A stretch of 64,000 nt of DNA from a virus, in the IMG/VR virus record IMGVR_UViG_3300045971_000356, positions 1 through 64,000 of that record, one strand, 5' to 3'. This document shows positions 10,124-52,710 of the stretch, one piece after another. The notes beneath the pieces were generated by a model that did not search any database, was not told the DNA's origin, and saw only the letters and a program-made list of their open reading frames with translations. Position 1 is the first letter of the stretch. Each line of letters begins with the position of its first letter. Both the position numbers and the translations under genes were made by a program.

Positions 10124-10197
10124 GTGATATAGCATAGACAGATATGCAGGGGTCTCATAAGCCTCACAGGAAGGAGCGTTGCCTTCTATCACCACCA
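10123..10197 (+). tRNA. tRNA-Met(CAT)
   Basis: GGTGATA/TATCACC-ACCA, loop CTCATAA, non-canonical T-loop. Confidence 0.75.
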
Positions 10198-10208
10198 GTA
10201 AATACTTA

Positions 10209-11816
10209 ATGCGATTATGGTTTTTAATCTTTTTAGCACTCACATTGCTACCTGCTTACGCTCAAGACACGAGCCAACCGCAGGTAGTTTTTTCTGCGAT
10301 TAAAGATACTGACCAGCCCATTGAAGTACAGATGGAGACAGCAAGAGAGGCACTTAGGAACAATGACTTTGATACAGCAATAACCATACTGAATACAGTG
10401 CTGCTACTACCTAACAATAAGTTTACACAAGAGGCGCAAGCCCGCATTGGATTTGCGTACGAGAGATCTAAAAAGTACTCTAAAGCAATAGGCGAGTATA
10501 ACGCTTACATTGCCATGTATCCCAACAGCGGCATAGTGGAGTCAATGCGTAGGCGTTTACTGGCGCTTGAGATTTTAACGCCACAGCACGATGTAGCAAA
10601 AGCAATACCCGATGGACCGCGACAAATAAAAGAGCATAAAGTGGAAGCATCGAGCTCTACTTATTACATTGCTTCAGGTACTGACTCAACCTTGATTTCC
10701 AATGTACATGCGAACGGTGTGTTCAAAGATAATGAATACACTACAAAAGTAGTAGTGCGAGAAAATGTACACACTGACATTAAACCTAAAGTTGAATCTA
10801 AATACACGCTCAACACTGCCACTGTTGAAATTGAAAACAGTTATAAAGACTGGGAATTAAAACTTGGACGACAATCTTCTGATTACGGTGTAATGTCTAA
10901 GTTTGATGGTATAGCTGCAACGTATGGGTACGGGCACGACACTGAGTACACCTTAGTGCTCGGACAGCCATTAATGAACAATGCAACATCATCACGTAAA
11001 ATGTTTGGTCTTCACACTCACTTTAACTTAGGTGAGTTTACGTCAGCCACTGCATACTACAACCACCAAACTGCTGACAATTTTGAAGAGCGCTCAGCAT
11101 TGGGCACAGAGTTTAGGTACTTTAAGAACGAACTATCCGTGACAGCAGCAGCAGAGTACGACATAGCATATCAGCAACTAAACTCAGTGACATTTAACGC
11201 TCATAAAGACAACAACTCTAATAGATGGTTTGTGCTATACGATCGCAGAAAGTCTCCTGTGCTGTATGCCGACAAGGCGTTGGCACTGGGGTTGTTTAAC
11301 GGAGCAAACATGCCATATAATTCTATTGCAGAGGCATTAGCAAGGTCTGGTATGACAGCAAGCGAGTTGCGTGATTACATTGTGTCAGAAACAGCAGTGT
11401 CGTCAACATTTGCAATAGGTGGAGCAATAGCAGTAAACACATGGACCTTAGGTGGTGATATACAATCTGCAACAATGACAGGAACTGGTACCGAGCCGCA
11501 GTCATCTAAGATTAACTCAATATCGTTAAACGCATTTAACCCGAATGCTTTTCTAAAGCATTCAGTTAACGCTATTGTATCTTACTCTACGTCAGAAAAC
11601 GGTATATATACATTGACATTGTTAGACAGCACCGATATAGCAAAAATAAGATTAGACACTACTGCTCGTATTACTAACAAACAAAACAAACTATTATCGT
11701 TTAGTACACATCATAAACTGACTAAGGATGCGTTTTTAGAACTTCAACTTATGCTAAGTAAGATACGAGACGAGATAGACAAAACATTTATTTTAGGGTT
11801 TAGATATGAGTTTTAG
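10209..11816 (+). CDS. TPR-domain plus large beta-barrel outer-membrane protein (putative porin of a porin-cytochrome conduit)
   Basis: Signal peptide ending ...PAYA, TPR helices (EAQARIGFAYERSKKYSKAIGEYNAYIAMYP), many amphipathic strands and C-terminal LGFRYEF. Confidence 0.8.
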   Translation: MRLWFLIFLALTLLPAYAQDTSQPQVVFSAIKDTDQPIEVQMETAREALRNNDFDTAITILNTVLLLPNNKFTQEAQARIGFAYERSKKYSKAIGEYNAYIAMYPNSGIVESMRRRLLALEILTPQHDVAKAIPDGPRQIKEHKVEASSSTYYIASGTDSTLISNVHANGVFKDNEYTTKVVVRENVHTDIKPKVESKYTLNTATVEIENSYKDWELKLGRQSSDYGVMSKFDGIAATYGYGHDTEYTLVLGQPLMNNATSSRKMFGLHTHFNLGEFTSATAYYNHQTADNFEERSALGTEFRYFKNELSVTAAAEYDIAYQQLNSVTFNAHKDNNSNRWFVLYDRRKSPVLYADKALALGLFNGANMPYNSIAEALARSGMTASELRDYIVSETAVSSTFAIGGAIAVNTWTLGGDIQSATMTGTGTEPQSSKINSISLNAFNPNAFLKHSVNAIVSYSTSENGIYTLTLLDSTDIAKIRLDTTARITNKQNKLLSFSTHHKLTKDAFLELQLMLSKIRDEIDKTFILGFRYEF

Positions 11817-12318
11817 CAAGTTACTGATTGTAATATTTGTAAGTTGGTATGTTACACCTTCTATAGCAGCAGAATGTACCGCGTACGAAAAATCGCACCC
11901 ATCATTTTTGCTTGACGGAGCACACTTGTCCACGGGTAAGTGCCAAACGTGCGCAAGCTGTCACATCAACAGTATCTTCAACGGCACACCACGCTCATGC
12001 GTAACATGCCACAATGGAGATCCAGCACGTAACACCATTGGGAGACCAGCGTTACACATACCTACACAGCTTATCGAGTGTAATGCCTGCCACAAAACGG
12101 TATCATTTGCTACATCTGTTACTATGAATCACGTTATACTCGGGTCAGTGAAATGTACAACATGCCACTCAACAGCAAGCCCGCGATATCTTGGCAACCA
12201 GCAACGCATGTCGTTAACTCACGATCAGCGAACACCGGTGCCCACAGACTGCTCACAAGTTGGGTGCCACCGCCCCGGCGGTACAAAAGGTGTGCTATAC
12301 AAAAGTTGGGACAACTAA
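11806..12318 (+). CDS. secreted multiheme cytochrome c (4 CxxCH plus 1 CX4CH)
   Basis: Signal peptide; CASCH, CVTCH, CNACH, CTTCH and CSQVGCH. Confidence 0.9.
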   Translation: MSFSKLLIVIFVSWYVTPSIAAECTAYEKSHPSFLLDGAHLSTGKCQTCASCHINSIFNGTPRSCVTCHNGDPARNTIGRPALHIPTQLIECNACHKTVSFATSVTMNHVILGSVKCTTCHSTASPRYLGNQQRMSLTHDQRTPVPTDCSQVGCHRPGGTKGVLYKSWDN

Positions 12319-12408
12319 TCAGACTAAATAACTATGCTTTTAAGTTTTGACTAAGAACGCCTAAATAATTATGACCACTTGGTCATTACACATTAGGACG
12401 TTTATACC

Positions 12409-13137
12409 ATGCTTAAAAAGATATTACTTAGTTTAGCACTTATTGTAGCGGGCACATTGGGAACTGCTACTACAGCATCTGCGGCAGAATGTACCTTATA
12501 TGAGCAATCCCACCCAGCGTTCTTATTGGACGGGGCTCATCTATCAACTGGGCAATGCAACACCTGTGCATCATGTCACAAAGGTGGTGTATTTGTGGGT
12601 ACTCCAAAATCATGTACTGCGTGTCACAACGGTGACCCAGCAAGAACTACAGTAGGTAGGTCAGCATTACACATTCCAACACAGTTAACTGAATGTTCTT
12701 ACTGCCACCGCACAACTGCGTTTACGACCAACGTAAACATGGACCACACGCAAGTAACTCAGCAACGTTGCGACACTTGCCACAATGGATCATACTTGAA
12801 CTACGGTAAAAACTACGGTGGAGCAAAACAAAAAGGTCCATTGCACATTCCAACTACTGCTGATTGTTCATCGTGCCACACTACACAAAGCTGGTTAGTT
12901 AACCACGCAACAATCCATGCTGGCGTGACTACAGGTTGCGTAAACTGCCACAACGGCACTTACGCACCAGGCAAATCATCGTATGCTGCTGGACACCCAG
13001 TAACATCTGATGCTTGCGAAACTTGCCACAGCATTGATAACGCATTCAAGTGCGCCTCTGCTTACGACAAAGTAAAAGAATTCTTTGCGGTGTTGATACA
13101 CAAGGCAAAGATTTATTCCAACCATGCGTTTGCTTAG
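12409..13137 (+). CDS. secreted heptaheme cytochrome c, paralog of the upstream gene
   Basis: Signal peptide; CASCH, CTACH, CSYCH, CDTCH, CSSCH, CVNCH and CETCH. Confidence 0.92.
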   Translation: MLKKILLSLALIVAGTLGTATTASAAECTLYEQSHPAFLLDGAHLSTGQCNTCASCHKGGVFVGTPKSCTACHNGDPARTTVGRSALHIPTQLTECSYCHRTTAFTTNVNMDHTQVTQQRCDTCHNGSYLNYGKNYGGAKQKGPLHIPTTADCSSCHTTQSWLVNHATIHAGVTTGCVNCHNGTYAPGKSSYAAGHPVTSDACETCHSIDNAFKCASAYDKVKEFFAVLIHKAKIYSNHAFA

Positions 13138-13561
13138 TTTCAAAGACCTATATATTCTATCATCAGATTGGCATGTAAGTTATTGGACAGGTGTAGTTTG
13201 CGGCATAATAATGCTGCTATTGTTTACGTACCCGATTCGCAAATATTTCTTTGCGATTCGTGGTATCGGTAAAATGTCAACATGGTTTAACGCACACGTG
13301 GTGTTAGGCACTGCGATGACATTTCTGTTGATTTACCATACTAACTTTTTCCATACTCACTCGTTAAACGGTACCTTTGCCTTTTACAGCATTGTGGCAG
13401 TAGTAGCAAGCGGATTTGTGGGAAGGTATATTTTGCGTAGAGTACATAATCACAAATTTTGGGCTGACTTGTTCAAACATTGGCATGTAGCGCATGTACC
13501 CGTGATTTATATGTCGCTGGTTCTTGTGTTGATTCACGTTTATGCTATCCACGTATATTAA
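13124..13561 (+). CDS. four-helix inner-membrane His-rich protein (cytochrome b / ferric-reductase-like)
   Basis: Four hydrophobic segments with WFNAHVVLG, YHTNF, HWHVAHVP and LIHVYAIH. Confidence 0.7.
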   Translation: MRLLSFKDLYILSSDWHVSYWTGVVCGIIMLLLFTYPIRKYFFAIRGIGKMSTWFNAHVVLGTAMTFLLIYHTNFFHTHSLNGTFAFYSIVAVVASGFVGRYILRRVHNHKFWADLFKHWHVAHVPVIYMSLVLVLIHVYAIHVY

Positions 13562-49982: not shown

Positions 49983-50855
49983 TTACTCGTCAGCTTTCTT
50001 AGCGATATATCGCTTCCAAACAAAAACAAATATTGGTAGTAATATGGTTGACCACAGCCATTGCCCGTATTGCTTTAACCACCCAAAAAGAACCTGTTGT
50101 TTAGTAATATCAATAAACACAGACTGGTCGAATGTAGTTATATGACGGTTAGCAGACATATCATCTACGACTACTAATGCGTCAACAGTGATTTTAACCT
50201 CTTGCTTACCGGGTTTAGTTGGAGTCAAATCCCATTCCCATATAGTAGGCGCAGATTCTGCCAATGCTTGCTCTTCTGTGCTAAGTGCGACCACAGTGAA
50301 CGACGGAGCAATGAGTTTCACAGTGATGATTTTAGATACCTGTATTTTGCTTGAAACAACAATGCCTTTTTGCTCAATATTTACTTCCCCAACTTTCTTC
50401 TTTGGGTCAAGTATTACTTGAATGCGGAACTTTTCTGCGACATTGACAGACTCAGGAACATTAAACGCAATAGTAGACTCGTGTAACTGATCAAGTATGT
50501 TGTCCGTTGTCGTGTGCTTTGCGGTAGCAGTCCGTTCTGCTTTTGAAACAAGAACTGCCATTCGTCTAACACTGCGAACAGCTTTTTCCATTTCAGCGTC
50601 TTTCTCTGTTTTACTAACTTTATCTGTTGCGGCAGATTCAGTCGCAGAGGCTTTTTTAGCCTTTGATGCAAAATTAAAGTTAAATGAAGTATCACCCGCA
50701 ATGAATGCTGCTCTTGGGCTTGTGACCGGAATCGGCGGCGAAGGCATAGGTATTGATGCTGACACGGGCATAAGCACTACTACAGGCATTGGTTGTAGAG
50801 TTCCGCAAGACACTAATAAAATACATAGTAAGGGAGTAACAATATGTTTTTTCAT
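49983..50855 (-). CDS. lipoprotein with C-terminal TM anchor
   Basis: LVSC lipobox and C-terminal WLWSTILLPIFVFVW. Confidence 0.6.
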   Translation of the reverse strand: MKKHIVTPLLCILLVSCGTLQPMPVVVLMPVSASIPMPSPPIPVTSPRAAFIAGDTSFNFNFASKAKKASATESAATDKVSKTEKDAEMEKAVRSVRRMAVLVSKAERTATAKHTTTDNILDQLHESTIAFNVPESVNVAEKFRIQVILDPKKKVGEVNIEQKGIVVSSKIQVSKIITVKLIAPSFTVVALSTEEQALAESAPTIWEWDLTPTKPGKQEVKITVDALVVVDDMSANRHITTFDQSVFIDITKQQVLFGWLKQYGQWLWSTILLPIFVFVWKRYIAKKADE

Positions 50856-50893
50856 ATCGTATTTATAGATAAATAAGTTAAAGAGGTATCTGT

Positions 50894-51301
50894 ATGGACC
50901 TAATATTATCGTTTATTTTGCGTAACAAAGGGCTAGTCGTAGGTCTACTTCTTATGGCAGCATTGGGTGGATGTTACATTTACATAGACATGCTTAAAAA
51001 TGATGCAAAGGTTATCATTGCAGAAAAAAATGTAGTTATAGCGGAGTTGCAAGCGTCACAAGCTGCGTTAAAAGGGCTGCAATCTGCAATCAATGAGCAA
51101 AACTCAGCAGTAACTAAGTTAAAGGATGATGCCGAAGCAAGGGCAGCGGCAGGCCAGGCAGAAATAACGCAAGCAAAAGTAACCTCAGAGCTATACAGGC
51201 GCAAAGCGTCAGACTTGATGAAGGTTAAACCAGATCCAAAACTGTCTCGCTGCGATGCTGCTAACGCTCTTATAAACTCGGAGATCGGCAATGCAAACTA
51301 A
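50894..51301 (+). CDS. i-spanin (Rz-like)
   Basis: N-terminal TM, coiled coil, C-terminal Cys, overlapping a lipoprotein gene. Confidence 0.7.
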   Translation: MDLILSFILRNKGLVVGLLLMAALGGCYIYIDMLKNDAKVIIAEKNVVIAELQASQAALKGLQSAINEQNSAVTKLKDDAEARAAAGQAEITQAKVTSELYRRKASDLMKVKPDPKLSRCDAANALINSEIGNAN

Positions 51302-51587
51302 ACTTTTATTATCTCTATTGGCAGCATTTGCGTTAGCTGGTTGCGCGACGACTAAAGAGCCTGTGATTACTACAGTAATACAAAAAGTAGAAGTGCCTAT
51401 TTCGGTGCCATGCAAAGTGGAAATGCCACCACCACGCGATTACAACTTTAACAAGATTACAGCAGAGATGGATATTTTTGAGAAAGTGCAGGCGCTACTT
51501 GCTGACAGGCGCTTACACTTAGGCTACGAAGCTGAACTAAAAGCAACATTAGGGACCTGCACCGCAGATACAATTAAGGCAAAATAA
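51291..51587 (+). CDS. o-spanin (Rz1-like) lipoprotein
   Basis: LAGC lipobox, Pro-rich VPCKVEMPPP. Confidence 0.7.
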   Translation: MQTKLLLSLLAAFALAGCATTKEPVITTVIQKVEVPISVPCKVEMPPPRDYNFNKITAEMDIFEKVQALLADRRLHLGYEAELKATLGTCTADTIKAK

Positions 51588-51630: not shown

Positions 51631-51638
51631 TATAAATA
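51631..51638 (+). promoter_or_regulatory. T4-type late promoter
   Basis: Exact TATAAATA 30 nt before the cytochrome ATG. Confidence 0.75.
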
Positions 51639-51668
51639 AAAGTACATACTTTTAATATAGGAGGAAAT

Positions 51669-52310
51669 ATGTTTTTGAAGAAGTTATTTGCGGCCTTATT
51701 CGCTGTAAGTGTAGTTAGTGCTGGCGCCGGCACCATTGTAGGATCAGCACATGATTTTAGTGGTCAAGCATGGTCTCCGAATGCGCAAACTTGCGTGGCT
51801 TGTCACGCACCTCACGCAACAGCAGTTCTGGCAGATGCTCCACTTTGGAACCACGCATCATCAGTAGCAACATACACTGTTTACGCATCATCATCAATGA
51901 ATGCAACGGTGGGGCAACCTGGCTCAACCTCCAAACTTTGCTTGTCATGCCATGATGGTACGGTGGCAGTTAATTCTTTTGGCGGAGTGACTGGTACTAC
52001 AATGCTGACTGGCGGTTCAAATCTCAGCACGGTATTAACTAATGACCATCCGATCGGTTTTACTTATGATGCTGCGTTAGTAACAGCAGACGGTGCGTTG
52101 GCTCCAATTACAAATACAGTTACCTTAGGTTCAGGTACTAAAGTTAAATCTGGACCCACTGTAACTATAGCATCTGCTATGTTATATGCGGGTAAAGTTG
52201 AATGCGCATCATGCCATGATGTACATAATACATTTACCGCTGCAACTGGTAAATTGGTAAAAGTGTCAATGGCATCAAGTGCATTGTGTACCACTTGCCA
52301 CACTAAATAA
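51669..52310 (+). CDS. OmcE-like secreted tetraheme cytochrome c
   Basis: Signal peptide; HDFS, CVACHAPH, PLWNH, CLSCHDG, LTNDHPIGF, ECASCHDVH and LCTTCHTK. Confidence 0.85.
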   Translation: MFLKKLFAALFAVSVVSAGAGTIVGSAHDFSGQAWSPNAQTCVACHAPHATAVLADAPLWNHASSVATYTVYASSSMNATVGQPGSTSKLCLSCHDGTVAVNSFGGVTGTTMLTGGSNLSTVLTNDHPIGFTYDAALVTADGALAPITNTVTLGSGTKVKSGPTVTIASAMLYAGKVECASCHDVHNTFTAATGKLVKVSMASSALCTTCHTK

Positions 52311-52325
52311 ACATCAAAACCGCAG

Positions 52326-52354
52326 AAAACTGGCACTTTCGAGTGCCAGTTTTC
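52326..52354 (+). terminator. intrinsic terminator
   Basis: AAAACTGGCAC-TTTCGA-GTGCCAGTTTT. Confidence 0.85.
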
Positions 52355-52416: not shown

Positions 52417-52710
52417 ATGAATAGAATTTTAGCGGCTTTGCTTATTGCTCTTGTAGTAATACCAGTGATGGCGAAAACAAACAAAAACGATAGTGCATAC
52501 ACTGAAAAGTATTCGTTTGAAGAAAAGATAAAAGATCAATACAATAACGGCAAAAATGATATAAATTTTGACAAAAATGAGTATGCAGATTATAGCAGCA
52601 GCAATGATCATTATACTCCGACAAGTCCAGTGCCAGAACCGACATCTTGGATGATGATGCTTGCCGGCGGAATAATAATTAACCGCCTTCGCAAAAAGAT
52701 GCATAAATAA
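52417..52710 (+). CDS. small PEP-CTERM surface protein
   Basis: Signal peptide; C-terminal VPEPTSW, hydrophobic stretch, RLRKK. Confidence 0.85.
   Translation: MNRILAALLIALVVIPVMAKTNKNDSAYTEKYSFEEKIKDQYNNGKNDINFDKNEYADYSSSNDHYTPTSPVPEPTSWMMMLAGGIIINRLRKKMHK

Follow-up and report, generated by a model that had tools for sequence, protein, structure and literature searches.

Does a phage encode a subunit of cytochrome nanowires, and what would it gain from one? The question is raised by a gene for a predicted secreted tetraheme c-type cytochrome that stands directly downstream of a spanin-like gene pair in a large phage. Cytochrome nanowires are, to our knowledge, the sole structurally established route for microbial electron transport over the micrometre range. 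We analyzed the gene and its neighborhood, the family and modeled fold of its product, and its relatives in cellular and viral genomes.

Phage record and gene neighborhood

The DNA analyzed here, a stretch of 64,000 nucleotides referred to as the window, covers the initial 64 kb of the 166,302-bp IMG/VR virus record IMGVR_UViG_3300045971_000356 (G000), which is linear and about 47% complete according to CheckV. G000 is a T4-like large phage, encoding rIIA (phrog_612, E 1e-130), RNR, an ATP-dependent DNA ligase, NAMPT, tail-like proteins, a DnaB-type helicase and 22 tRNA genes. The tRNA genes are found at window positions 1174-26875, that is, in the first 27 kb, and include duplicates for Pro(TGG), Trp(CCA), Leu(TAG) and Val(TAC). 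The features surrounding the cytochrome gene are as follows.

50894-51301, plus strand: i-spanin-like protein, 135 aa (phrog_3774; N-terminal TM segment, coiled coil)
51291-51587, plus strand: o-spanin-like lipoprotein, 98 aa (lipobox LAGC; phrog_3580, 3e-17; phrog_456, Rz-like, 9e-5; Pfam LysC, 0.005)
51631-51638, plus strand: T4-late-promoter-like box TATAAATA, a putative promoter 30 nt 5' of the start codon
51659-51664, plus strand: Shine-Dalgarno sequence GGAGGA, 4 nt 5' of the ATG, read directly from the sequence
51669-52310, plus strand: coding sequence of an OmcE-family tetraheme c-type cytochrome, 213 aa, with four CxxCH motifs and the distal-ligand candidates H28, H49, H127 and H186
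52325-52354, plus strand: terminator-like hairpin (stem of 13 bp, including 6 GC pairs; loop of 4 nt)
52417-52710, plus strand: PEP-CTERM secreted mini-protein, 97 aa (TIGR02595, 23.6 bits, cut-off 16)

The two genes upstream of the cytochrome overlap, and weak but concordant evidence makes an i-/o-spanin pair a plausible reading of them. Adjoining this pair on the opposite strand is a predicted 290-aa lipoprotein (49983-50855, minus strand) with a lipobox LVSCG and a C-terminal TM segment, for which no family match was found in Pfam, PHROGs or NCBIfam. On the other side, the segment 52311-52711 is an indel: the sister contigs L090 and L091 run from position 52310 straight to 52712, and the mini-protein gene is missing from both.

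The box TATAAATA, the T4 late-promoter consensus, occurs 10 times in the window, where 4.5 occurrences would be expected. In G000, 21 of the 62 copies of ATAAATA sit 5-60 nt 5' of plus-strand gene starts (for example, at window positions 50869, 51632 and 52389). These 21 crude gene starts compare with 3.8 expected under a uniform distribution, an approximately 5-fold ratio that is inflated by AT-rich intergenic DNA. Among the starts preceded by the box are those of the spanin-like operon, the cytochrome gene and the PEP-CTERM gene, the last having an ATAAATA box of its own. This concentration would fit a T4-type late promoter, and late expression of the cytochrome gene is plausible.

The open reading frame at 51669-52310 runs from ATG to stop and encodes a 213-aa product. 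Its N-terminus (MFLKK, a hydrophobic stretch, AGA|G) has the features of a cleavable Sec signal comprising residues 1-22, removal of which would leave a mature cytochrome of about 191 aa. The four heme-binding motifs are CVACH (42), CLSCH (91), CASCH (179) and CTTCH (207). The protein contains nine histidines in total, namely the four proximal ones and H28 (HDFS), H49 (CHAPH), H62, H127 (NDHP) and H186 (CHDVH). A sequence-only reading of this DNA had described a secreted protein with four CxxCH motifs and extra histidines, equipped with its own box, ribosome-binding site and terminator and standing alone directly 3' of the spanins. All of these elements were located where that reading had placed them, the promoter and terminator being recognized by likeness, and the gene is solo and adjoins the spanin-like pair.

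Assignment to the OmcE family

In a phmmer search against the PDB sequences, the phage protein gave a full-length match, well outside what chance would produce, to chain A of 7TFS, the cryo-EM OmcE filament of Geobacter sulfurreducens (E 4.4e-26, query residues 11-213), and another to 9yuq_N (E 1.7e-22, query residues 8-213). The latter entry, 9YUQ, is the bundled OmcE nanowire of Desulfuromonas soudanensis (PMC13712944). In the alignment, 7tfs_A presents the motifs HDLS, CVFCHTPH, PLWN, YSSSSMN, CMSCHDG, LSNDHP, ECGSCHKVH and LCLGCHKK in this order, which confirms both the motif order that the sequence-only reading had given for OmcE and its claim that the phage protein follows OmcE motif for motif. 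Searches of Pfam and NCBIfam gave generic multiheme matches only (Paired_CXXCH_1, cytochrome c7), an OmcE-specific model being absent from these two libraries, and PHROGs returned no match for the protein.

The AlphaFold2 model built on the family alignment (pLDDT 90.5, pTM 0.83) had 7TFS as its sole meaningful match in a Foldseek search of the PDB (E 6.9e-9, TM 0.55/0.58). Comparison of the model with 7TFS by VIA-align gave a Z score of 14.2 and an rmsd of 2.4 Å over 165/202 residues with 38% identity. No fold match to the model was found in the viral structure library BFVD.

The OmcE-family signature consists of four CxxCH motifs and four further heme-coordinating histidines (PMC13712944), and part of what holds OmcE and OmcS filaments together is the ligation of a heme in one subunit by a histidine of its neighbor (PMC9473688, PMC12954529). 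In a 72-sequence family alignment no variation is seen at the eight cysteines, the four proximal histidines, H28, H127 or H186, and at least 90% of the members keep H49. H28, H49, H127 and H186 each align with a histidine in both 7tfs_A and 9yuq_N, and the resulting count of four plus four ligands in the phage protein fits the inter-subunit ligation scheme. H28 is located on the N-terminal arm, at about residue 7 of the predicted mature chain, and aligns with the second modeled residue of 7TFS; we infer that it may act as the trans ligand for the heme of a neighboring subunit. A fold unlike OmcE and a missing inter-subunit ligand had been named in advance as findings that would speak against the assignment; the model matches the OmcE filament, and a candidate for the ligand is present and invariant across the family. 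A prediction of the complex formed by two chains (residues 23-213) and four hemes, run without controls, scored 0.02 against a mark of 0.42 and counts neither way on polymerization.

The phage protein and G. sulfurreducens OmcE (GSU0618, 7TFS) are alike in length, Sec signal, the set of four CxxCH motifs and four ligand histidines and their order, and they share a mostly-coil fold with 36-38% identity along the mature chain. The phage protein differs in that it is phage-encoded, solo outside an omcE cluster, different in its loops and without adjoining glycosylation genes, and in that it is known here from sequence and model, not as a filament. With OmcE of D. soudanensis WTL (9YUQ) it has full-length homology and an identical motif set in common. 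The anti-parallel bundle-interface loops of the D. soudanensis protein vary across the family (PMC13712944), so bundling is not inferable for the phage protein.

The OmcE-like family is large, with more than 6,600 proteins (E < 1e-3) that form at least 4,431 clusters at 50% identity. Tetraheme OmcE-like genes are widespread, and only the cluster-associated ones are treated as likely nanowire formers (PMC13712944). Tandem OmcE-like fusions exist as well (P0121, P0122, P0123 and P0236), for example proteins of 1400 aa with four matched stretches and of 965 aa with three, which would amount to "wire segments" already joined covalently.

The idea of an anchor or terminator subunit marked by a ninth histidine has been raised (PMC13712944), and we considered it for H62 (WNH) of the phage protein. 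This candidate role was rejected, as H62 is common to all close cluster-encoded cellular subunits. Its presence in the cellular major subunits means that it is not a phage-specific capping feature.

By sequence and modeled fold, then, the phage protein is a true member of the OmcE family, and it is very probably a genuine OmcE-type nanowire subunit carried as a phage auxiliary gene.

Cellular origin and the omcE cluster

The phage protein shares 77-81% amino acid identity with cluster-encoded betaproteobacterial homologues, and about 84% over the mature part. The closest named genomes are those of uncultured Betaproteobacteria (80, 77 and 75% identity), Candidatus Ideonella esbjergensis (73%) and Rhodocyclaceae. 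In a maximum-likelihood tree of 108 sequences (a quick search with midpoint rooting, in which support was assessed by SH-aLRT only, without bootstraps), the gene from the window and its relatives on contigs L090, L091 and P0003/L116 form a nested phage clade with a support of 93. This clade lies inside a clade with a support of 95 that also holds the cluster-encoded metagenomic genes L092, L093 and P0005/L003 and itself falls within betaproteobacterial sequences. The phage gene is host-derived and nests among genes of uncultured Betaproteobacteria.

The cellular genes are organized in a cluster with the order OmcE-like gene, NHL beta-propeller, ~680-aa protein, NHL beta-propeller, and two multiheme cytochromes of ~565 and ~250 aa. 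For 68 cellular loci the downstream DNA extends to 4.5 kb or more; of these, the propeller is present in 66, the ~680-aa protein in 58 and the large cytochrome in 57. A model of the ~680-aa protein, based on 37 orthologues, is a large all-beta barrel (pLDDT 86) with about 35 strands and a C-terminal Phe. In Desulfuromonadia the minimal omcE cluster comprises two multiheme cytochromes, two beta-propeller lipoproteins, OmcE and a large beta-barrel (PMC13712944), and the betaproteobacterial cluster is this minimal omcE cluster. The ~565-aa cluster cytochrome (L002:13231-14919) opens with an OmcE-like domain that shares 39% identity with the phage protein along 182 residues, and is a candidate for the base or end piece of the wire.

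Neither tblastn nor a genome search of the 166-kb record revealed a cluster propeller or barrel gene. Cluster membership is therefore a property of the nearest cellular homologues and not, in cis, of the phage copy, which would need the host set in trans. Judging from the nearest cellular homologues, the natural host probably has the omcE cluster.

When compared with the betaproteobacterial cluster copies (L010 from "uncultured beta proteobacterium MFD00032.bin.2.34", L092, L093 and L003), the phage protein has H62 in common with them, whereas the phage gene is solo, has a GC3 of 0.30 and carries a 3-residue loop insertion. The loop changes of the phage clade comprise this insertion (G-PTV) after KSG, a replacement of N by A or D in TIAS-N-MLY, and SPNAQ; none of them occurs in close cellular copies. 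They could reflect a modified rather than an equivalent function.

Residence and selection in the phage lineage

The cytochrome gene has a GC content of 0.45 and a GC3 of 0.30, and the phage as a whole has a GC content of 0.41. The copies in the phage lineage have GC3 values of 0.26-0.32, against 0.52-0.87 in the cellular homologues; the composition of the gene has been ameliorated to a phage-like one. Contigs L090, L091 and L116, which come from other JGI samples, carry the spanin-like and cytochrome genes in the same order and with 76-80% DNA identity, and L090 and L091 continue downstream, past the indel, with 94-96% identity. The lineage is present in JGI samples 3300064051, 3300063029 and 3300063111. 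The same flanks in independent contigs from three other samples show that the gene is no assembly chimera and has a fixed place in the phage lineage.

Among three phage copies the dN/dS ratio is 0.036-0.126, with dS of about 0.9-1.6 being near saturation. The neighboring spanin-like genes have ratios of 0.07-0.09, and the cytochrome gene is as low or lower. Such low values between phage copies indicate strong purifying selection inside the phage, and the gene appears to have long resided in the phage lineage under this selection.

OmcE-like genes in other phages

Eight viral contigs with OmcE-like genes were identified when IMG/VR was scanned with an alignment; a single-sequence IMG/VR scan and tblastn and megablast searches against the INPHARED phages had found no viral relatives. 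Three large genomes of high quality possess a solo OmcE-like gene: G001 (536 kb, CheckV 100%), G002 (181 kb, direct terminal repeats, CheckV 100%) and G003 (304 kb, 89%); further copies lie on viral contigs that are more distant. The phage genes near the OmcE-like genes of other phages include those for a tail fibre, RNA ligase, RtcB and HNH, and the full motif set is intact in these copies. A genome search of G001, G002 and G003 turned up neither propellers nor barrels. Maturation genes of the CcmF/CcsA type were not detected in any of the four phage records by a search that did detect its controls.

The copies in G001, G002 and G003 resemble the one studied here in being solo and tetraheme, in possessing all motifs and in residing in genomes without propeller or barrel. 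They differ from it in sequence, being 38-48% identical and placed on separate long branches of the tree. This divergence makes independent capture in other phage lineages likely, though not proven; OmcE-like genes have thus likely been captured independently by several phage lineages.

No report of a phage-encoded nanowire cytochrome was found in the literature searched. Cyanophages carry psbA, not a whole photosystem. A NapC/NirT multiheme cytochrome and amoC are among the auxiliary genes of freshwater amoC-phages (bioRxiv 10.64898/2026.06.18.733297), and this cytochrome is the closest precedent. Like psbA of cyanophages and the amoC-phage genes, the OmcE-like gene is a host-derived single component of a respiratory or photosynthetic system made of many proteins, is carried by large phages and groups with host homologues; unlike them, it encodes a subunit of an extracellular polymerizing wire and not of a membrane enzyme.

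The heme module at 10.2-13.6 kb

A further heme module of the window, at 10179-13561, encodes a 545-aa protein with a BamD/TPR-like N-terminus, two cytochromes and a 145-aa membrane protein. The cytochromes are a 170-aa protein with four CxxCH motifs and one CxxxxCH, and a 242-aa heptaheme protein. We considered these genes as partners of the kind found in the omcE cluster and rejected them in this role: the 545-aa protein has no similarity to the cluster barrel, and the heptaheme protein resembles the OmcE-cluster cytochrome at the motif level only. The coupling of the OmcE-like protein to a conduit at 10.2-13.6 kb, as proposed in the sequence-only reading, is unsupported, these genes being homologous neither to the barrel nor to the cytochromes of the omcE cluster.

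The heptaheme family is small (135 proteins). The module recurs on further jumbo-phage-like contigs; on one of these, the 273-kb L104, the heptaheme family lies in a similar neighborhood, with a 687-aa AMIN-domain protein, 227-aa and 241-aa cytochromes, and HNH and GIY-YIG genes; it may be mainly phage-borne. The JGI sample 3300045747 yields both L104, with the heptaheme module, and the cellular contig L093, and is a good place to seek a host-phage pair; the omcE-type cluster on L093 is complete, and its subunit shares 77% identity with the phage protein.

Proposed role and alternative explanations

The reading that we moderately favor is that of a host-captured OmcE subunit that is kept by T4-like phages and polymerizes into wires that sustain electron transfer. 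The precursor would be exported by Sec during infection, and its four hemes would be attached by the cytochrome c maturation system of the host. The phage subunit would then be delivered to the propeller and barrel machinery of the host and would polymerize head to tail, alone or with the host subunit, a histidine of each subunit completing the heme of the next. Extracellular electron transfer and energy supply could in this way be kept or raised while host gene expression is shut down. The phage contribution would be limited to one structural subunit, the costly one that dominates the stoichiometry, as with psbA. A filament may by estimate contain more than 10,000 subunits (PMC13712944), and the carriage of the dominant subunit alone is in keeping with known auxiliary genes that encode a single subunit. 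Chances are even, in our judgment, that the protein is incorporated into filaments with a pro-respiratory role. A late-type promoter beside lysis genes suits an energy-supply role less well than early expression would.

Incorporation might also serve an end other than respiration. A phage variant that co-polymerizes with the host subunit or replaces it could remodel the filament and alter the cell surface, thereby blocking superinfection or the trapping of progeny on debris, particularly if the nanowire or its pore is the phage receptor. The loop changes confined to the phage clade are of the kind that remodeling would produce, as it is the heterogeneous loops that are exposed at the surface of OmcE filaments, and phage recognition of filaments has been named as a possible selective force (PMC13712944). 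The gene also stands among envelope-directed genes (spanin-like and PEP-CTERM) and 3' of a late-type box, and together with the loop changes these features keep remodeling a live rival. We nevertheless hold it to be distinctly unlikely, as dN/dS is uniformly low, with no diversifying selection, and the mature part is still about 84% identical to the cell copies. Somewhat less improbable, but unlikely too, is a tetraheme carrier of the periplasm or cell surface that does not polymerize and acts as a soluble shuttle, a sink or a redox buffer of late infection. Such a role would agree with the lack of propeller, barrel and partner cytochromes in cis, and not all of the widespread OmcE-like tetrahemes are assumed to form wires (PMC13712944). 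Against it stand the ~80% identity of the phage protein to the cluster-encoded subunits and its phylogenetic position inside them, the retention of H28 on the N-terminal arm, and the four distal histidines, which are invariant or nearly so in the family.

The two remaining alternatives concern the virion and the contig itself. The late-promoter-like box is the single feature in line with the suggestion, made in the sequence-only reading, that virions carry or display conductive cytochrome filaments, and the suggestion is contradicted by the cleavable Sec signal and by the site of heme attachment. Attachment of c-type hemes by the Ccm and Ccs systems comes after periplasmic export, and virions of tailed phages assemble in the cytoplasm; display on virions is for this reason very unlikely, indeed barely credible, and the lack of a PHROG match or a BFVD fold match leaves the protein without similarity to structural proteins. 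A linear metagenomic contig record could in principle be a chimeric bacterial-phage assembly, or the gene a recently captured, functionless passenger. This explanation is refuted by the GC3 of 0.30, which is like that of the phage and unlike that of any cell copy, by the recurrence of both phage flanks in independent contigs from three other samples, and by the low dN/dS with dS near saturation, and we give it hardly any weight. A polymerizing, host-captured subunit stays the reading that we prefer.

Implications

The window encodes an OmcE-family subunit as a solo, host-derived and selected phage auxiliary gene. We regard the claim of identity as solid and the physiological claim as plausible. 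The gene suggests that the phage interferes with the passage of electrons out of its host. A broader proposal, that large phages whose hosts are electroactive or metal-cycling bacteria repeatedly capture the wire subunit and that infected cells build partly or wholly phage-encoded wires through the host pore, is put forward tentatively, as we think it somewhat less probable than its opposite.

For uncultured Betaproteobacteria of the freshwater, wastewater or soil type, OmcE-type wires seem to matter enough to repay the coding space that a phage spends on them. How cells secrete nanowires, and how the wires are started and ended, is not yet settled (PMC13712944). A resident assembly system may accept a subunit given in trans, which would offer a simple experimental handle on assembly, and the phage copies, if the proposed role is true, would provide a natural collection of subunits that are competent for assembly with no cluster of their own. 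It would also mean viral control of extracellular electron transfer, either powering replication or altering a wire that serves as surface structure or receptor. Viruses may thus act on mineral and electrode respiration and on interspecies electron transfer, through a class of auxiliary genes that was not found in the literature searched.
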